From assembly GCA_035500505.1 (NCBI GenBank), contig DATJXE010000003.1:201697-265696 (forward strand): a DNA stretch of 64,000 bases, written 5' to 3'. The notes beneath the pieces are model-generated. The model was given only the letters and a program-made list of their open reading frames with translations, had not been told where the DNA came from and ran no database searches. How positions within the stretch are numbered: position 1 is the first letter of the stretch; each line of letters starts with the position of its first letter. A program made the translations under genes and the position numbers. The DNA is from Minisyncoccota bacterium. Its GTDB lineage: Bacteria > Patescibacteriota > Minisyncoccia > Phycocordibacterales > UBA2100. This document shows, one piece after another, positions 1 through 61,329 of this stretch.

Positions 1-46
1 AACATCAATGGCTATAACTCCTTGCAGGTCCTGCTGAGCCCGTAAT

Positions 47-13885: not shown

Positions 13886-14287
13886 TTAGGCGGCTTTTGC
13901 CATAAGGCGATACGAATCGATAACCATTCTCCAAGCAAGATTCATGCTGCGGTTATCCAGCGAAATCGGTACCGTGAATCCGACGCCGACGGGACCGTAG
14001 CGAAGCTTCTCAGGTGCATCGTAGAAGTTGCCGAACACTTGAGCCAAGGCACACGCGCGATCCGACTCGATCTTGAGCGCTTTCGGATCTAATCGCGCGA
14101 CCGACCCCGGGACTTCGCGTTCTAGCGCTTCCGCACTACGGCGAGCATAGACCAGGGCGCTTTCGAGTCGTTTTGCTTTCCTCTCGGCCAAGGAAGCGCG
14201 ATAGTTGTCGACCCAAGAAAAGATCCTTCGAGCAAACGAAGGCGTCTTCGGCGTTGTCTGAAAGGGTAGGGCAAGTGCGGTGTTCAT
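13886..14287 (-). CDS. Hypothetical protein
   Basis: 133-aa ORF with no motif recognised. Confidence 0.3.
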   Translation of the reverse strand: MNTALALPFQTTPKTPSFARRIFSWVDNYRASLAERKAKRLESALVYARRSAEALEREVPGSVARLDPKALKIESDRACALAQVFGNFYDAPEKLRYGPVGVGFTVPISLDNRSMNLAWRMVIDSYRLMAKAA

Positions 14288-14383
14288 GTGTTCGTCCTCG
14301 TATTTCCGGGAGCTTATGCTCCCGGTCCGCTAAAAGCCTGCCATATCTTGCGTTTGTATTCAATAGATAGTACACTCGCCGAG

Positions 14384-14413
14384 TCCCCGTCGGGGATTTT
14401 TAGTTGAAACATG
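14384..14413 (+). promoter_or_regulatory. GC hairpin + U5 immediately upstream of rpsL start
   Basis: tcccc-gtc-gggga-ttttt ends 9 nt before the ATG. It could occlude an SD-like GGGGA. Confidence 0.3.
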
Positions 14414-14827
14414 GCCACAATAAACCAACTCACCCGCAAAGGCCGCACGGCCCGCCGCGGCAAGGACAAGACCATCGCGCTCTCGCGTGGCTTTAACACG
14501 CTCAAAAATCGCCCCACCTTCTATTCCTCGCCCTTCAAGCGCGGCGTCTGCACCCAGGTAACGACGAAAACCCCCCGCAAACCGAACTCCGCCATCCGCA
14601 AGATCGCGCGTGTTCGTCTCACCAACGGCATGGAGATTACCGCTTACATTCCGGGCGAAGGACACAACTTGCAAGAACACTCGGTCGTGTTGGTGCGCGG
14701 TGGGCGCGTGAAGGACATCGGTATCCGCTACACCATCGTGCGCGGCAAACTCGACACTGCCGGCATCGACAAGCGCCGTCGCGGCCGCTCGCTCTATGGC
14801 GCGAAGAAACCGAAGGGGGAGAAATAA
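14411..14827 (+). CDS. rpsL: 30S ribosomal protein S12
   Basis: '[12 protein letters not shown]', '[31 protein letters not shown]'. Carries a ~14-aa insertion and a C-terminal extension. Confidence 0.9.
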
Positions 14828-15359: not shown

Positions 15360-15902
15360 ATGAAGCGGTACTTTATCGAGGAGTCACCGTTCTCGTATTT
15401 TTTCACCGCCGACACGCGAAGTGCGGGCCTGTGGTTCCTGGTACGCCTCTATCTCGCGTGGCAATGGTTGCAGGCCGGATGGGAGAAGCTGCACGATGCT
15501 GCGTGGGTGGGTGCCAGTGCGGGTACCGCGCTTTCCGGTTTTGTACAGGGAGCACTCGCCAAAACGACCGGCGCGCACCCGGACGTGCAAGGCTGGTACG
15601 CCTCGTTTTTGCAGACTTTTGTTCTGCCGCATGCCGCATTGTTCTCGCATCTCGTCGCGTGGGGAGAATTTTTGGTGGGGGTCGCGCTTGTCATCGGCTT
15701 CCTCACGGGCTTGTCGGCTTTCTTCGGCATCTTTATGAACCTCAACTACCTCCTTGCCGGAGCCGTGAGCGTGAATCCCATCATGTATACCCTCGGCATC
15801 GGGGTCGTGCTCGCGTGGCGCGTCGCCGGGTATTGGGGCGCGGATCGCTACGTGCTCCCGCTCTTGAGCAAGTATCTGCGGCCGCGTCTGCGGGAAGGAT
15901 GA
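15360..15902 (+). CDS. DoxX-family membrane protein
   Basis: 'RLYLAWQWLQAGWEKL' and 'AWGEFLVGVALVIGFLTG' match the DoxX/DoxD fold, 4 TM. Inserted between rpsG and fusA; TACAAT lies 7 nt upstream of ATG. Confidence 0.5.
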   Translation: MKRYFIEESPFSYFFTADTRSAGLWFLVRLYLAWQWLQAGWEKLHDAAWVGASAGTALSGFVQGALAKTTGAHPDVQGWYASFLQTFVLPHAALFSHLVAWGEFLVGVALVIGFLTGLSAFFGIFMNLNYLLAGAVSVNPIMYTLGIGVVLAWRVAGYWGADRYVLPLLSKYLRPRLREG

Positions 15903-15940
15903 ATTTCTTGCACTTTCTATTAAATCGGCTACATTACTGA

Positions 15941-15965
15941 AACGCCTCCGGGCGTTTTCTTTATG
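15941..15965 (+). promoter_or_regulatory. Leader hairpin (aacgcc-tccg-ggcgtt) + U-tract ending at fusA ATG
   Basis: A TTGCAC-16-TACATT promoter-like element lies upstream. The hairpin abuts the start codon and there is no SD. Confidence 0.4.
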
Positions 15966-18160: not shown

Positions 18161-18562
18161 TCAATTCAAGCTGATTCCCGGAGGCCTCTGACCCACGCCG
18201 CGCTTCATGTTGAAGTTCTGCCCACCGACGAACGACTCCATGCAGTTTTGTCCGAGCGCATAGGTTAGTACGCGCAGCAGTTCATCGACGGCATTTTTTG
18301 TGCTCTCTTTGTCCGCTGGCGAAGTCCCGAACAGCACGAAGATTCCCGTTTCTTTCGTGTCGGAAAGCCATTTACCGTGAATCGTGAGCGGAAATTCATT
18401 TCGAGCCGCGCGCATCACGCAAAAAGTCGCGGCGACAGCCTTGATCTCATCGTCAGTGTGTATTTTTCCGGGCTCGATTTCGTCTGTGACGCAGCATAGA
18501 ATCGTCCAACCCACCTCCGACTTGCTCTGTTCCGGTAGTTCGACTCGCGGGCGCTCGTTCAT
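18161..18562 (-). CDS. Hypothetical protein
   Basis: About 133 aa from MNERPR. Convergent with fusA, no motif recognised. Confidence 0.3.
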   Translation of the reverse strand: MNERPRVELPEQSKSEVGWTILCCVTDEIEPGKIHTDDEIKAVAATFCVMRAARNEFPLTIHGKWLSDTKETGIFVLFGTSPADKESTKNAVDELLRVLTYALGQNCMESFVGGQNFNMKRGVGQRPPGISLN

Positions 18563-18657: not shown

Positions 18658-18720
18658 CCTTGACGCTCCAAAGCATTCTGCTACTATGTCGCCACGCACG
18701 CTCCGTGCGTATTCTTTTGC
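18658..18720 (+). promoter_or_regulatory. Sigma70-like promoter (TTGACG-16-TGCTACTAT) and 5' hairpin + U-tract leader of tuf
   Basis: Hexamers read directly. acgcacg-ctcc-cgtgcgt followed by attcttttg at the predicted 5' end. The leader is ~155 nt. Confidence 0.4.
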
Positions 18721-24478: not shown

Positions 24479-24847
24479 ATGACAGCGGAAAAGACGGCAA
24501 CCAAGAAACCTCGCACCTCGCGTGCGAAGAAAGAGGCTGGCCCCAGTCGGCTGCGCATTCGCGTGCGTGCCTACGAGCACGGCGTCTTGGACCGCTCCGT
24601 CAAGCAGATAATCGACACGGCGGCCCGCTACAACGCCAAGGTCGTTGGCCCTGTTCCGCTCCCCATCGATATAAAAAAGTACACCGTCAATCGCGCCGCA
24701 TTTATAGATAAAGACTCGCGCGAGCAATTTGAGATGCGCATCCACAAGCGCATGATAGACATTTTGAATCCCGAGGCGAAGGTCATCGAGGCCCTCACCA
24801 ACATTGATCTTCCTTCAGGCGTCAACATCGACGTGAAGATGATGTAA
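24479..24847 (+). CDS. rpsJ: 30S ribosomal protein S10
   Basis: 'RIRVRAYEHGVLDRSVKQIIDTAARYNAKVVGPVPLP...FEMRIHKRMIDI'. N-terminal Lys/Arg-rich extension. Isolated from the rest of the S10 operon. Confidence 0.85.
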   Translation: MTAEKTATKKPRTSRAKKEAGPSRLRIRVRAYEHGVLDRSVKQIIDTAARYNAKVVGPVPLPIDIKKYTVNRAAFIDKDSREQFEMRIHKRMIDILNPEAKVIEALTNIDLPSGVNIDVKMM

Positions 24848-24947
24848 GTAAACAGGCCAATCTTGACCAGATTGCCTATCATGGTATAATCCCCTTAGTC
24901 TTCGGAACGAGGTCGACCTCGTAGCCCCGGAGCGTTGGAGTAATCCG

Positions 24948-25190
24948 ATGGAAAAGATCGTTTTGGCCGTTTTTGCGGCCATGCTTGCCGTCGCGCCAGC
25001 GTCGGCGGCGTCGCGCTTTACGTCGGAATCGACGTCGGCGTATGCGGAGGCTTATCCGCCTCAGCCCCAGAGTCTCACCGGTAAGTGTAATCAGTGGGCG
25101 GGCGGGGTGTACAACCCCAGCATCCACAAATGGGTTATCACGAGCCGGTACCAGATGCTCCGGAAGTTGGCCTGTCCGTACTACAAATAG
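24948..25190 (+). CDS. Small secreted peptide (80-aa precursor, 2 Cys in mature part)
   Basis: Sec signal 'MEKIVLAVFAAMLAVAPASAAS'. TGGTATAAT promoter and a 16-nt palindromic 5'UTR hairpin (acgaggtcgacctcgt) lie upstream. Confidence 0.5.
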   Translation: MEKIVLAVFAAMLAVAPASAASRFTSESTSAYAEAYPPQPQSLTGKCNQWAGGVYNPSIHKWVITSRYQMLRKLACPYYK

Positions 25191-25268
25191 CGGCAGACCT
25201 GGAGACACTGCTGGAAGACGAATTTAGGCGGCCACATTGGCCGCCTTTTCATATGCGATGGTTCCCGA

Positions 25269-26755: not shown

Positions 26756-27211
26756 ATGGATCTTGAACTAAGGATCGAGGATCGCTCGTGGGACCGCGAA
26801 CGGCACTTGCGCCACATCAACGAAGGGGCATGGCTTCCCATGTTGGACGCGGATGGTAAGGTGCTCCCGGGTATTGTCGGAAAACGCGGCGTCGAAGGCG
26901 ACAAAAAAGACAGCACCAAGATCGGTGCCGATTTCGTGAAGATGAACCCGGGCACGAAATTTCCTCTACACGAGCATGAAGGCGAGCACGAGATCTTTTT
27001 CATTTCTGGTGAGGGGTTCGTGCATATCGATGGGGAAAATATCCCCGTCCGGGCGGGACACGTAATCCACATTCCGGGGGAATATCCCCATGGCGTGTGG
27101 GTTAGCGAAAATGTCAGCGAGCCGCTTATTTTCGTGGCCGCAGGGCATCCGCACAAACACGTCGATGCGGCCGATCGTATGCAACACCCACATGCACACC
27201 GGCACAGATGA
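26756..27211 (+). CDS. Cupin-domain protein with His-rich C-terminal tail
   Basis: 'PLHEHEGEHEIFFISGEG...HVIHIPGEYPHGV' cupin_2 motifs, and tail 'HPHKHVDAADRMQHPHAHRHR'. Confidence 0.6.
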   Translation: MDLELRIEDRSWDRERHLRHINEGAWLPMLDADGKVLPGIVGKRGVEGDKKDSTKIGADFVKMNPGTKFPLHEHEGEHEIFFISGEGFVHIDGENIPVRAGHVIHIPGEYPHGVWVSENVSEPLIFVAAGHPHKHVDAADRMQHPHAHRHR

Positions 27212-27268
27212 GTTCGAAAACACCACGCAAAAAGAAGGGCCGCCCTGCAAGGCGGTCCTTTATTTTTT

Positions 27269-27838
27269 ATGCAATACTTACGCCGTATGCTCATCTTGCT
27301 CGGCGGTTTTTTGGGGAGTGGACGAAAGATGCTCGCGAAACAGCTCGCTTACCGACAGAAGTTTTATCTCTATGACACGGAGGCAAAGAAGATGCACCAC
27401 CCCGAGTTCCAGTCGGACGGCAGCGTAAAAGAGGTGACCGAACCGCCAAAAAGCGAAGAACAACGGATGTTCCTGTACAAGCGCATCGTTGATGATTTCC
27501 CGCGTCTTTCAAAAATGTATCCGGACACCGTTATTGAGGAGGCATTTCACCGGATCGGACCGCGCGACTACTTCATTACCGAAGCGAAGAAGTTTTTCGA
27601 CCCGGTCGTGTTTGTATGGGTGGACTCTGACGAGGCGCATGTGGAGGAGCGGATGCGACGGATGGTAAAACTCGGGCTGGTAAAGAATCTTAGCGAGGCG
27701 ATGAACCGTCGTCGCAGAGCCGCCCGACATTTCAACCAGGACCCTTCGATGCGGGTGTTCAAGTGTGTCAAAGCCGATAGTGCTGAAGCAGATGCGTTGT
27801 GGACACTCGTTCGCGGAATCGCCGCAGGTAAAAGTTGA
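27269..27838 (+). CDS. P-loop NTPase-like (kinase-like) protein, atypical Walker A
   Basis: 'ILLGGFLGSGRKMLAKQLA' is a glycine-rich loop with RK in place of GK. Weak call. Confidence 0.3.
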   Translation: MQYLRRMLILLGGFLGSGRKMLAKQLAYRQKFYLYDTEAKKMHHPEFQSDGSVKEVTEPPKSEEQRMFLYKRIVDDFPRLSKMYPDTVIEEAFHRIGPRDYFITEAKKFFDPVVFVWVDSDEAHVEERMRRMVKLGLVKNLSEAMNRRRRAARHFNQDPSMRVFKCVKADSAEADALWTLVRGIAAGKS

Positions 27839-38562: not shown

Positions 38563-38639
38563 ATAGCGGCATAGTTGCACGCCTTCTTTTTTCGTATATA
38601 GTGCTTCCACCCAAGTCCGTATATGGACCAATGGTGAGC

Positions 38640-38682
38640 TTCAAAAGCCCGCCATTGCGGGCGTTCACATTTTTAGGATATG
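38640..38682 (+). promoter_or_regulatory. Leader hairpin + U-tract + SD before rplC
   Basis: gcccgc-cattg-gcgggc-gttcacattttt-AGGAT-ATG. Confidence 0.35.
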
Positions 38683-41263: not shown

Positions 41264-41674
41264 TCAGGGAAGTTCCGCGATGTGAAAGTCAGGAAGCTCC
41301 CGCTTGAAGACCCCTAGGGTAATTTTCCGTTCCGATTCACGAACAATGTCCGGGCTTTCCCCTTGCAGGAAGATACACCTCGTCCCATAGGGCATGTAGG
41401 TGAGCTCCCCGCCGCCAAGCATTTCGAACTCGAGCGGCTGAACTTCGGTCTTGAAATTGTGAAGGACTTGCCCGACCAGGACGTTTCGAGCCGCTACACG
41501 GATAACGATCCGCTCCGTACCGCGTCCGTCGTTTACCTTGAAGACGACGTATCGATAGATCCTTTTTTCGGTCAGTACATTGCCGTTCAACAGCCTCAAA
41601 TCCAGAGCACAAGCCATGGAAGCCTCCCGATTAAACTCAACTTCCACCATAACCCGAAAAGTATTACTACACAA
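41264..41674 (-). CDS. Hypothetical protein encoded antisense within the ribosomal protein cluster
   Basis: 136-aa ORF between rplB and rpsS, with no motif. Flanked by the terminator and the rpsS promoter. Confidence 0.35.
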   Translation of the reverse strand: MCSNTFRVMVEVEFNREASMACALDLRLLNGNVLTEKRIYRYVVFKVNDGRGTERIVIRVAARNVLVGQVLHNFKTEVQPLEFEMLGGGELTYMPYGTRCIFLQGESPDIVRESERKITLGVFKRELPDFHIAELP

Positions 41675-41728
41675 TAATCTCGACGACCTGCAACAGGACC
41701 TCGATTTTTTCTAGGATTCTCGTGGAAA

Positions 41729-41796
41729 TTTGACGTACCAAAGTCTATCCTATATATTGTGCCAACGCCGTGCAGGCGTTTTTGTTTGAAGATATG
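41729..41796 (+). promoter_or_regulatory. rpsS promoter (TTGACG-16/18-TATATT) with 5' hairpin aacgcc-gtgca-ggcgtt + U-tract ending 8 nt before ATG
   Basis: Read directly. The hairpin 6-mers aacgcc/ggcgtt are identical to those before fusA. Confidence 0.45.
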
Positions 41797-45393: not shown

Positions 45394-45855
45394 TTAAACT
45401 GCGATTAAGGTCGCGCCAGTGTCGTCATGTACTTGATGGCCAGTATATGGGCCTTCATAAGCGTTTTTCGCGTACTCGATTGCTTTCTCTCGATCATCAA
45501 GGTCGGCAACAAGCTTAATTGTGCCGGTGGCAATATCGGCGCAGATGATGCGGAACTTGCCGGGTGGCGCTTTCCGCTCTTCTTCGCTGATGATGGCGCC
45601 GACCGCGTCAACGATGCGACCATGGTCATCGTAGATCCTGTAGCGGAGCACCTCCTTAACCTCGAGTCGTTTCTCATGGAGCAGCGTGCGCCAACGGTCA
45701 AGAGCGTCATGTCTGTCAACGAAGTCCTCGACGAGGAAGTATTCTGACGGCACGAGCTCGGTTTCTGCTCGCCGCATTTTGACCCTCACCACCCGGAATT
45801 GACCGGGCAATGCCTTCAGTTCGGCTTCGGTGAGGCGGTTGTTGAGAGCACTCAT
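45394..45855 (-). CDS. Hypothetical protein with internal duplication, antisense within ribosomal cluster
   Basis: Two related halves ('LPGQFRVVRVKM...', 'PPGKFRIICADIATG...'). About 154 aa from MSALNNR. Confidence 0.35.
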   Translation of the reverse strand: MSALNNRLTEAELKALPGQFRVVRVKMRRAETELVPSEYFLVEDFVDRHDALDRWRTLLHEKRLEVKEVLRYRIYDDHGRIVDAVGAIISEEERKAPPGKFRIICADIATGTIKLVADLDDREKAIEYAKNAYEGPYTGHQVHDDTGATLIAV

Positions 45856-46087
45856 CGTTCGTCCTCCTCTAAAGTGGTACGTGAGTGTCGACAATATATG
45901 CCGATTGCAATTTTTGTCCATTTGTTTGACTTTGCAAGAGACATCGCATATATTGTCGAAGCCTCGTAGGGGGTTCTGTCTTACCCGAAGTTAATTGAGG
46001 GATTCAGAGCCACGAACGGGAACGCGATAACTTTCGCCGCAAGGCCAAGTGCACGCCCCCGAATTCTCCTATAGGGCATCATCTTAT

Positions 46088-46273
46088 ATGGCAAAAAAGT
46101 CGATGGTCGTGAAGGCCAACAAGAAACCGAAATTCTCAACCCGCACCGTGCGGCGCTGCTTCAAGTGCGGCCGCCCGCGCGGTTTTATGCGTGATTTCAA
46201 TCTCTGCCGTATCTGTTTCCGCGAGGAAGCGTTGGAAGGCAACATCCCCGGAATAAAAAAGTCCTCCTGGTAA
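46088..46273 (+). CDS. rpsN: 30S ribosomal protein S14 type Z (zinc-binding)
   Basis: 61 aa, '[24 protein letters not shown]' with CxxC...CxxC. Confidence 0.85.
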
Positions 46274-59600: not shown

Positions 59601-59974
59601 TGTACGATACGGCGATGCGAGCATTCACGGCGCAGGCGGTCATATTCATCCTCATCGCTGTTCTCTACTTCTATTTTGGATTTCACGAACGGTATCTTTT
59701 CACGATCTGGTGGTGGGACATCCCGCTGCACATTCTCGGCGGACTTTGGGTCGCGTTGGCCGGCACGTGGTTCTTCGGACTGTTCGGCATACGAGTCCGT
59801 CCCATGCAGGCGATAGCGCTGGCATTTTCTGTGGGAGTCGCGTGGGAACTATTCGAATACCTTTTCGGTATCGGCGGTTCGTTGTTCATGAGCTATCCTG
59901 TCGACACGGCGAAAGACCTCTTCGACGACGTTCTGGGGGGCGCGGTCGGCGCGCTTCTCCTCGGATACCTATGA
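59597..59974 (+). CDS. Hypothetical membrane protein
   Basis: 3-4 TM, Trp-rich ('TIWWWDIPLHILGGLWVALAGTWFF'). Confidence 0.4.
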   Translation: MVYDTAMRAFTAQAVIFILIAVLYFYFGFHERYLFTIWWWDIPLHILGGLWVALAGTWFFGLFGIRVRPMQAIALAFSVGVAWELFEYLFGIGGSLFMSYPVDTAKDLFDDVLGGAVGALLLGYL

Positions 59975-61329
59975 GCGCGCGTATCACGTTCTGTGGCGGC
60001 GCAGGAACGGTGACGGGTGCGAATTTCTTGCTCGATACGGGCGACAAGAAGCTACTGGTGGATTGCGGCGCGCTCGAGCGCGAGCGCGTGTGCGACCCGG
60101 AGAACCTAAAAGCCTTCTCGTACGATCCTGCGTCCGTCGACGCGCTGTTCGTGACGCATGCGCACCAGGACCATATCGGCCGGGTGCCGAAGCTCGTGCG
60201 CGACGGATTTCGCGGCGCCATTTTCTCGACGCCCGCGACGAAAGAGCTGAGTGCGCTCATGTTCGAGGACGCGCTTTCCGTGATGCAGAACGAAAAGGAA
60301 CGGTACGGGTGCGATTTTTTGTATGAGCGACCCGATGTGGAGAGGGCCCTTTCGCTCTGGAAGACCCATGAATATCACGAATCGTTCGCCGTTGGGGACG
60401 CGCAGGTCGGATTCCTCGACGCAGGGCACATTCTCGGTTCGGCAATGGTCAAATTCGAGCGAGGCGGCAGGACAATTCTGTTTACCGGCGACATCGGCAA
60501 CTCTCCCGAACCGCTTTTGCATGACGTCGAGTCGGCGGCAGGTGCCAACTATCTCGTGATGGAAAGTGTGTACGGCGACCGTTCGCACGAAGACCGCGCC
60601 GCGAGACGCGAAATACTAAAGTCCGCTGTCGAAGAGACGCGAGAGAAAAAGGGAACGCTCCTCATCCCGTCATTTTCCATCGAGCGCACGCAAGTGCTCC
60701 TTTTTGAGCTGAAAGAAATGATGGAAAAAAAGGAGGTCCCGCTGACGCCGGTGTACTTGGATGCGCCGCTCGCGATACGGATAACCGAAGTATTCGAAAA
60801 ATATAAAAATGAGCTGAACGCGGCCGCTGCGGCGGAGGGTCGGGCCGGCCGCCCCCTCTTTTCTTTTCCGGAACTCCTCGAAACACCCCGCGTTTCCGAA
60901 TCTCGCGAGATACACGCGATGCCGGACCCGAAGGTCATCATCGCTGGTGCGGGGATGTCGTCCGGCGGAAGGGTCCGGGCGCACGAAAAACGCTACCTTT
61001 CGGAGAAAAACTCGGTCATTCTCTTGGTCGGCTACCAGGCGCCCGGAAGCCTGGGCAGGCGTATCCAGGACGGACAGCACAATGTCGTGATAGACGGGAA
61101 GAATATCCAGGTCCGCGCGCGCGTCATATCGCTCACCGGCTATTCCGGCCACGCGGACAAGGATCAGCTGCTCGCTTTTGCGGAAAGTGCGGGGGATTCC
61201 CTCGAAGAAGCCTTCGTTGTCATGGGAGAACCGAGGGCGTCCGGCTTTCTCGCGCAGCGCATCAAGGACTTTTTGGGCGTCGAGGCGCTCGTCCCGGCCC
61301 TGGGAGATTCGATTTCGATAAATTGGTGA
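59971..61329 (+). CDS. MBL-fold beta-CASP family ribonuclease (RNase J/CPSF-like)
   Basis: 'LFVTHAHQDHIGRVP', 'FLDAGHILGSA', 'GYSGHAD' beta-CASP motif C. ATGA overlap with the upstream stop. Confidence 0.7.
   Translation: MSARITFCGGAGTVTGANFLLDTGDKKLLVDCGALERERVCDPENLKAFSYDPASVDALFVTHAHQDHIGRVPKLVRDGFRGAIFSTPATKELSALMFEDALSVMQNEKERYGCDFLYERPDVERALSLWKTHEYHESFAVGDAQVGFLDAGHILGSAMVKFERGGRTILFTGDIGNSPEPLLHDVESAAGANYLVMESVYGDRSHEDRAARREILKSAVEETREKKGTLLIPSFSIERTQVLLFELKEMMEKKEVPLTPVYLDAPLAIRITEVFEKYKNELNAAAAAEGRAGRPLFSFPELLETPRVSESREIHAMPDPKVIIAGAGMSSGGRVRAHEKRYLSEKNSVILLVGYQAPGSLGRRIQDGQHNVVIDGKNIQVRARVISLTGYSGHADKDQLLAFAESAGDSLEEAFVVMGEPRASGFLAQRIKDFLGVEALVPALGDSISINW

Follow-up and report, generated by a model that had tools for sequence, protein, structure and literature searches.

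We show that translation genes in a 64,000-nucleotide stretch of the genome of a Minisyncoccota bacterium (assembly GCA_035500505.1, contig DATJXE010000003.1, positions 201,697 to 265,696 of the forward strand; this whole stretch is hereafter called the window) carry a common module at their predicted transcription start sites. At rpsL, fusA, tuf and rpsS, and in a weaker form at rpsN, a sigma-70-type promoter is followed, after a gap of 3-6 nt counted from the end of the -10 box to the maximally extended stem, by a hairpin of 5-8 bp and a U-tract; with so little between promoter and hairpin, the stem begins at the predicted +1 position. The conserved property is the position of the hairpin relative to the promoter, not to the ATG. 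Tentatively, and with somewhat less than even confidence, we read the module as a 5'-terminal protective stem joined to a U-rich pad on which ribosomes could load independently of a Shine-Dalgarno (SD) sequence.

The hairpin module in the window

The promoters and hairpins, all on the plus strand, are as follows.

14348..14376, +: rpsL promoter, -35 TTGCGT (14348-14353), 17-nt spacer, -10 TACACT (14371-14376)
14382..14403, +: rpsL +1 hairpin and U-run, 5-bp core TCCCC-GTC-GGGGA at 14384-14396, extendable to 14382-14398; U-run at 14397-14401
15908..15935, +: fusA promoter, -35 TTGCAC (15908-15913), 16-nt spacer, -10 TACATT (15930-15935)
15939..15962, +: fusA +1 hairpin and U-tract TTTTCTTT, AACGCC-TCCG-GGCGTT at 15941-15956
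18660..18687, +: tuf promoter, TTGACG, 16-nt spacer, TACTAT, with TG extension
18694..18719, +: tuf +1 hairpin and tail ATTCTTTTG, ACGCACG-CTC-CGTGCGT at 18694-18710
41730..41758, +: rpsS promoter, TTGACG, 17-nt spacer, TATATT
41764..41788, +: rpsS +1 hairpin and U-tract TTTTTGTTT, AACGCC-GTGCA-GGCGTT at 41764-41780
45926-45954, +: rpsN (S14) promoter, TTGACT-17-TATATT, with a weak +1 hairpin at 45960-45975

The rpsL, fusA and rpsS leaders, with predicted lengths of about 28, 22 and 30 nt (ATG at 14411, 15963 and 41794), consist of hairpin, U-tract and a few further bases only. The tuf hairpin heads a predicted leader of 152 nt (ATG 18846), and the candidate module of rpsN, whose product was identified as S14 by Pfam, heads one of about 128 nt (ATG 46088). 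Hairpin energies and shuffle z-scores were computed with ViennaRNA. The rpsL, fusA, tuf and rpsS hairpins fold with -8.4 to -9.5 kcal/mol: -8.5 kcal/mol and z -1.5 at rpsL, -9.1 and z -3.3 at fusA, where the stem reaches 8 bp when the outer G.U and A-U pairs are counted, -9.5 and z -3.2 at tuf, and z -1.5 at rpsS. All module leaders are without an SD sequence, and no hairpin contains an SD sequence or a start codon.

An initial annotation of this DNA had reported hairpins at rpsL, fusA, tuf, rplC and rpsS. All five are present where it placed them, the gene identities are confirmed by Pfam, and the TTGACG/TATATT promoter that it saw upstream of the rpsS hairpin is there. The loops were read correctly at fusA, rpsS and rpsL, while the tuf loop has 3 nt and the rplC loop 4 nt, one C and one G respectively having been doubled. 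Its description of the hairpins as lying immediately before start codons suits rpsL, fusA and rpsS (5-14 nt) but not tuf, where the hairpin lies 135 nt upstream of the ATG, and it fails as a defining position at rplC, whose hairpin begins about 38 nt downstream of the predicted start site.

The pairing of promoter and hairpin in the window exceeds chance. In a census by offset of promoters of the form TTGnnn-16..18-TAnnnT followed by a hairpin with a T-tail, five pairs fall at offsets of 3-6 nt, all on the plus strand and all ahead of translation genes, whereas the other 37 offsets tested yield only four pairs; about 0.4 would be expected in four offsets, so that the observed number is roughly ten times the expected one. 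The module is also restricted to translation operons, since 5 of 8 translation transcription units in the window carry it but none of the other units, about 19 in number (Fisher p = 7e-4). As to the translation units that lack it, rpsJ and infC are near-leaderless and rplC has a structured leader of its own. Rfam returned no hit at gathering thresholds and, at E-values up to 5, nothing at any leader and only chance terminator-like matches elsewhere, and our literature search found no description of such a leader architecture in the Candidate Phyla Radiation (CPR).

Conservation of position with changing stems

For comparison, 80 fusA loci were fetched from genomes and 80 rplB loci from metagenomes, and their genes were placed by tblastn; these loci of relatives are labelled L001 onwards. 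By its EF-G matches, the window belongs to a CPR/Patescibacteria genome: the top match shares 89% identity, and those that come next, at about 73%, carry the labels Kaiserbacteria, Paceibacterota or Minisyncoccia. Among the 133 promoter-gene pairs formed by rpsL, fusA and tuf in 80 related loci and the window, stems of at least 5 bp begin 5-9 nt after the -10 box, with a mode at 6 nt (counts of 26, 20 and 17 at 6, 7 and 8 nt) over a background of about 2 per position, and the first 30 nt of the predicted transcripts fold better than shuffled sequences (mean minimum free energy z -1.1). In a MAFFT alignment of rpsL leaders the stems fall out of register, so that column-wise covariation could not be counted fairly; we relied instead on position profiles and shuffles.

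Each of the four genes shows the same pattern in relatives. The rpsL promoter has the form TTGC(A/G)T-17-TAnnnT, and in many relatives TTGCAT-17-TATATT is followed after 6-9 nt by a hairpin of 5-7 bp, a U-rich run and, 9-14 nt further on, the ATG, with stems unrelated in sequence (GACCC/GGGTC, CCCGC/GCGGG, CTCCC/GGGAG, GCGCGC, GAGTC/GACTC, TAGTCG/CGACTA); another 15 loci have a leaderless rpsL. At fusA, AACGC(C)..GGCG hairpins with TTTTATTT behind them are found in the nearest relatives and AAGCC, AGCAC or GTTCC stems in more distant ones, the ATG lying 25-110 nt further downstream. The tuf leaders, 40-200 nt long, open with an AACGC or AAUCGC hairpin in loci whose EF-Tu proteins share only 68-84% identity. 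Where rpsS stands apart from rplB, promoter, hairpin and U-tract are found again (L084, L086, L088, L089, L090), with CCCGC/GCGGG, AAGCCC/GGGCTT or AGCTC/GAGCT stems, and in L081 and L083 rpsS is nearly leaderless. The structure is conserved while the stem sequence changes, in keeping with one of the two alternatives of the initial annotation, that of conserved stability hairpins that define leader ends; they do lie at the predicted 5' end of the transcript. Since the hairpin stays at +1 even in leaders of 40-200 nt (tuf, and fusA of relatives), its partner is the 5' end and not the start codon.

The same variation bears on the idea that the inverted repeat, which spans +1 to +17, is a palindromic DNA operator for a dimeric repressor of translation genes. 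The repeat overlaps the start site, the classical position of an operator, and AACGC/GCGTT half-sites recur. However, the spacing of the arms varies over 3-8 bp and the arm sequences change with pairing kept, which is the signature of an RNA structure rather than of an operator, and the T-tract would be left without a role. We regard this idea as highly improbable and have rejected it.

A shared word, AACGCC/GGCGTT, had been noted initially at fusA and rpsS and attributed to a common binding protein or RNA motif. In many relatives, the fusA and tuf leaders do begin with this word, as AACGC(C). A common trans-acting protein, whether a ribosomal protein, an elongation factor or another RNA-binding regulator, might thus read AACGC(C)...(G)GCGUU and exert feedback on fusA, tuf and rpsS. 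AACGC or AAUCGC opens the tuf leaders of loci over that 68-84% range of EF-Tu identity, the fusA leaders of the nearest relatives and the rpsS leader of the window, and its conservation exceeds what pairing needs. Yet unrelated sequences make up the rpsL stems and those of fusA and rpsS in more distant relatives, the loops range from 3 to 8 nt, no leader matches a ribosomal-protein leader in Rfam, and no candidate protein was identified; we consider such a binder quite unlikely. The covariance-model search that the initial annotation proposed was run with 9 hairpin/U-tract seeds over 832 kb. The model carries too little information to discriminate (best non-seed E-values of about 0.05-1), but its hits are strongly enriched at the expected places: 31 of 82 lie in the 200 nt ahead of rpsL, fusA or tuf, regions that make up about 2% of the search space. 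The pair counts of its alignment (98.5% paired) are fitted by the model itself and hence circular, and were not used as evidence.

It could also be argued that the hairpin is a terminator or insulator for the upstream gene that overlaps the next promoter, its +1 position being a by-product of genome compaction. In the window, doxX lies upstream of fusA without any other terminator; in L011, L014 and L047 the element stands directly between the rpsG stop and fusA; and the outer A-U and G.U pairs that bring the stem to 8 bp would exist only in read-through transcripts. Against this, the upstream neighbours of rpsL and tuf are divergent, and since that of rpsL (13886-14287) lies on the minus strand, the rpsL hairpin is no terminator for it. 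At fusA, the promoter sits between the doxX stop (15902) and the hairpin, and at rpsS a promoter likewise separates the upstream open reading frame (ORF) from the hairpin. Many relatives have a separate strong terminator of 8-16 bp ahead of the fusA promoter, and the module stems are weak. The comparative data already indicate that the element is kept by purifying selection at rpsL, tuf or rpsS with no co-directional transcription running into it. As a main role, upstream termination was rejected on the divergent neighbours and the separate terminators, and we think it very unlikely overall. In L001, L003, L012, L013 and L015, about 60-90 nt upstream of fusA, the -35 box TTGCTT of the fusA promoter lies within the U-tail, TTTGCTTTTT, of the strong terminator ahead of it, an instance of tight packing.

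Genome context and possible function of the module

The genome around the modules is largely leaderless; the initial annotation had spoken of near-leaderless messages for the translation apparatus. Of 61 gene starts in the window, 20 are preceded by a TAnnnT hexamer, mostly in the extended form TGnTAnnnT, whose end lies 5-10 nt ahead of them, against a background of 3.6% (p = 2e-14), and SD-like motifs precede only 5 of 59 starts against a background of 12%. Examples of leaderless-type starts are given here.

2485, 5215, 8890, 12707, 13193, 15360, 20139, 37983, 54265, 57546, 61343 (+ strand); 33823, 62616 (minus strand): leaderless-type gene starts

At the leaderless genes, the A of the ATG lies 6-7 nt after the -10 box, and the start site is generally the 7th nucleotide after the -10 (PMC12641261). 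Stem base and leaderless ATG are thus equally far from the -10, and the stem occupies the place of the first transcribed base. About half of Parcubacteria lack a detected anti-SD motif, and the ribosomal protein S1 of CPR bacteria has only 3-4 domains (PMC9297842). CPR genomes keep RNase J, RNase III and PNPase, with rnj in at least 90% of them (PMC12641178).

In this setting, RNA polymerase would begin on the first paired base of a short stem-loop with a GC core, or on the base preceding it, so that the mRNA would be born with a base-paired 5' end; judged by its distance from the -10 box, the stem would lie within about 0-2 nt of that end. Protection against 5'-end-dependent decay, by RNase J or another beta-CASP 5'-exonuclease or by a pyrophosphohydrolase, is the most likely effect of the stem, and ribosomes most likely use the unstructured U-rich stretch that follows as a landing pad independent of an SD. 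As a result, the messages of rpsL-rpsG, fusA, tuf, rpsS-rplE and probably rpsN would be long-lived and well translated. This protective role accounts for the anchoring at +1 in long leaders, for the weak stems, for the absence of SD sequences and for the switching of rpsL and rpsS between leaderless and hairpin-led forms; the latter alternation fits a rule by which the 5' end must be either ribosome-bound or base-paired.

There are precedents for such a role. The 5' stem-loops of E. coli ompA (hp1) and papA and of the B. subtilis aprE and ermC leaders are reportedly stabilisers of this kind, known from work by Emory/Belasco, Hambraeus and Bechhofer. Similar to these, the module would place a stem 0-2 nt from the predicted 5' end, followed by a single-stranded A/U-rich stretch, on highly expressed mRNAs, and 5'-end-dependent RNase J is retained in CPR bacteria (PMC12641178). 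In contrast to them, it marks translation operons as a class throughout a lineage, the genome being mostly leaderless and poor in SD sequences, and its leaders go down to 22-30 nt, have no SD and run from the stem into a terminator-like 8-nt U-tract. Leaderless mRNAs are known from Actinobacteria, Deinococcus and archaea. The neighbours of the modules resemble them, with a -10 box 6-7 nt before the ATG, and the base of the module hairpin takes the position of that ATG; rpsL, fusA, tuf, rpsS and rplC, with predicted leaders of 22-152 nt, are not leaderless. As an analogy only, eukaryotic 5' terminal oligopyrimidine (5'TOP) mRNAs also carry a pyrimidine-rich signature near the 5' end of ribosomal-protein and elongation-factor messages, although 5'TOP depends on the LARP1/mTOR machinery, involves no hairpin and shares no homology with the module.

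Several observations weigh against the protective role. The U-tract is attached to the stem and discrete, about 8 nt long, even where the ATG is at least 40 nt away: across 20 leaders, six of them near-identical tuf leaders, T has a frequency of 0.5-0.9 at positions 1-8 past the stem and of 0.15-0.25 at positions 9-11. Such a discrete tract is terminator anatomy that neither a stabiliser nor a ribosome pad requires, and in long leaders the protective role leaves it unexplained. Three leadered genes outside translation, at 24948 (+) and at 18562 and 14287 (minus), have a well-spaced SD and no +1 hairpin, so that a 5' stem is no general need of leadered mRNAs here and the ribosome evidently can use an SD. 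The rpsN hairpin, the weakest member, folds no better than shuffled sequences (z +0.2), and marginal stems (4 bp, -3.5 kcal/mol) also occur at tuf in L002, L007 and related loci. Finally, the window does encode a beta-CASP/RMMBL metallo-beta-lactamase ribonuclease at 59710-61329, which speaks for the protective role, but its best NCBIfam matches, to type VII Cas14 (383 bits, cut-off 800) and to archaeal aCPSF1 (278 bits, cut-off 580), both fall below the family cut-offs, and the enzyme is not identifiable as RNase J or as a 5' exonuclease.

The U-tract would be explained if the module were a promoter-proximal attenuator, a weak intrinsic terminator or a hairpin-stabilised pause site, possibly assisted by NusA or NusG, about 20-25 nt past the start site. 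It would abort a tunable share of transcripts, with output set by nucleoside triphosphate (NTP) supply, elongation factors or growth rate, and in one variant the exact start nucleotide would decide whether the full stem forms. The initial annotation had left the choice between stability hairpin and attenuator undecided, and the evidence still pulls both ways: the +1 anchoring and the weak stems favour a role at the 5' end, the discrete 8-nt U-tract a terminator or pause. The module has the outward form of a small intrinsic terminator, in which a GC-core stem runs directly into a U-rich tract of 7-9 nt, and a consensus scan marks the tuf and rpsS elements as terminator-like. The tract stays bound to the stem whatever the distance to the ATG, and TTNTTT, which marks NusG-dependent pauses in Bacillus, is present in many tracts. 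Restriction to translation operons is what a regulon signal would show, and the element placed directly after the rpsG stop in L011, L014 and L047 can be counted on this side too. Moreover, the GC core has its edge at the predicted start site, so that a shift of 2-3 nt would disable a stem of 5-6 bp.

Set against these points, the stems fall far short of the strength of working terminators in the same organisms: median values are 5.5 bp and -5.6 kcal/mol for the 5' modules, compared with 12 bp and -16.6 kcal/mol for the 3' terminators that follow rpsG, fusA and tuf in these loci (Mann-Whitney p = 7e-12). The tuf leaders of L002, L007, L008, L011, L013 and L015 carry CGCUCUUUGG past the stem, with non-U bases beside it. 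An attenuator has no obvious need for an exact start at +1, yet this is kept in leaders of 100-200 nt. The feedback control that the initial annotation had suggested finds no room in the rpsL, fusA and rpsS leaders, since 22-30 nt are too short for an alternative antiterminator fold, and neither such a fold nor a sensor domain is present in them. Lastly, rpsL and rpsS are leaderless in several relatives. An attenuator would explain the U-tract and the regulon-like specificity, and would explain the +1 anchoring only if the choice of start site controls stem formation; we see it as a doubtful but substantial possibility.

Established ribosomal-protein leader attenuators include the E. coli S10 leader with L4/NusA and the B. 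subtilis infC and L10 leaders. Like these, the module is confined to translation operons and has a GC stem with a U-tract downstream of the promoter and ahead of the first translation gene; unlike them, it has no sensor or mimic domain and no alternative fold in the short rpsL, fusA and rpsS leaders, has stems of 5-7 bp, starts at +1 and matches nothing in Rfam. In E. coli and Salmonella, start-site switching at pyrC and pyrD senses NTPs, attenuation at pyrBI is sensitive to uridine triphosphate (UTP), and the pyrC hairpin hides the ribosome-binding site. The module shares with these systems a hairpin at the extreme 5' end whose formation would depend on the start nucleotide and U-tracts that would make elongation UTP-sensitive, but it sequesters nothing, the start codon being 5-150 nt downstream. 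It is tempting to extend this parallel to a lineage-wide cis-regulon for translation, in which mini-terminators at +1 vary in strength with the exact start nucleotide and with transit of the U-tract, start-site choice, NTP pools or Nus factors jointly set the output of rpsL, fusA, tuf and rpsS, and AACGC is part of the sensing sequence. We think this extension unlikely; if it were true, the regulon would be a sensor of growth rate or nucleotide supply in host-dependent CPR bacteria unable to make their own nucleotides.

Other leaders, neighbouring features and outlook

The initial annotation had grouped the rplC hairpin with the others. It does not belong to the +1 module class, being internal to a structured leader that is conserved separately.

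38575-38602, +: rplC promoter, TTGCAC-16-TATAGT
38575..38679, +: rplC structured leader including the promoter; predicted leader about 71 nt, ATG 38680
38615-38628, +: rplC hairpin 1, GUCC..GGAC
38625-38634, +: conserved GGACCAAUGG of the rplC leader
38647-38662, +: rplC hairpin 2, GCCCGC-CATT-GCGGGC
38670-38674, +: U-run of the rplC leader

The leader folds with -22.6 kcal/mol (z -1.9), and homologous leaders occur in L083 (about 730-896), L088, L011, L015, L008 and L031/L040/L042, with one compensatory change in hairpin 2 (GCCCGC/GCGGGC in the window, GCCCTC/GAGGGC in L083). It has no Rfam match at E-values up to 5. It is a candidate for an attenuator responsive to a ribosomal protein and for a new leader of the S10 type, and it is a closer analogue of the ribosomal-protein leader attenuators than the +1 modules are.

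A further leader stands out among relatives. In the subgroup of L002, the tuf leaders are conserved over about 110 nt, with a GGCUUG..CGAGCC / CAAGCU helix and a UCCGACUCGCGUCGGA hairpin. The tuf leader of the window has only the 5' hairpin in common with them, and the L002-group leader is a candidate for a separate cis-regulatory RNA.

L002 8681-8804, L007 7961-8085, L008 6347-6556, L011 6837-6956, L013 6943-7115, L015 6693-6806: L002-group tuf leaders

At fusA itself, the EF-G match spans 2.6-3.2 kb instead of 2.14 kb in L004, L008, L031, L038, L040, L042, L059, L064, L073-L076 and L080, which suggests insertions, possibly inteins.

The window has a G+C content of 55.8%. Pfam places S12, S7, EF-G, EF-Tu, L3, L4, L23, L2, S19, L22 and S3 where expected, S10 at 24479 and S14 at 46088; on the minus strand it finds IF3-L35-L20 (63829-62634). 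The str/S10/spc cluster (14411-46273) is split into at least seven transcription units by unrelated genes.

15360-15902: doxX, between rpsG and fusA
18161-18562, minus: ORF between fusA and tuf
24479-24847: rpsJ (S10), isolated, 14 kb from rplC
41264-41677: ORF separating rplB from rpsS
45394-45921, minus: ORF separating rplE from rpsN

The strongest consensus promoter of the window, TTGACC-16-TATAAT with TG extension, lies at 24863 (element 24863-25246). A noncoding RNA behind it was considered and rejected: the gene at 24948-25190 encodes an 80-aa signal-peptide protein, small and secreted, with a 57-nt leader, a GGAG SD and a terminator of its own at 25226-25246. Elsewhere, a strong bidirectional terminator of 11 bp, GAAGGGCCGCC..GGCGGTCCTTT followed by ATTTTTT (27234-27269), adjoins the start codon of the ORF 27269-27838, and no promoter is visible there; judged by GC at the codon positions, the gene upstream of it is probably 26756-27211 on the plus strand and not the longer minus-strand ORF. 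ARAGORN reports a 98-nt tRNA-Phe antisense to rpsL (14476-14573, minus), which is almost certainly a false positive.

The CPR, or Patescibacteria, make up a large share of bacterial diversity, and almost nothing is known of how they control gene expression. The layout of the window is one in which most genes are leaderless and free of SD sequences, a few ordinary leadered genes have an SD, and translation genes have a start-anchored module of their own. By analogy, this module would resemble the stabiliser stem-loops in function while looking outwardly like a small intrinsic terminator; its position relative to the promoter is the new and central point. A practical caution follows, in that terminator predictors will miscall module leaders as terminators before essential genes. 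Conversely, the module provides a sequence rule by which start sites and operon boundaries can be predicted in Paceibacteria genomes. If it stabilises mRNA, it shows a route to high expression without an SD sequence, and if it attenuates transcription, it would represent a very compact form of global control over ribosome synthesis in these bacteria.

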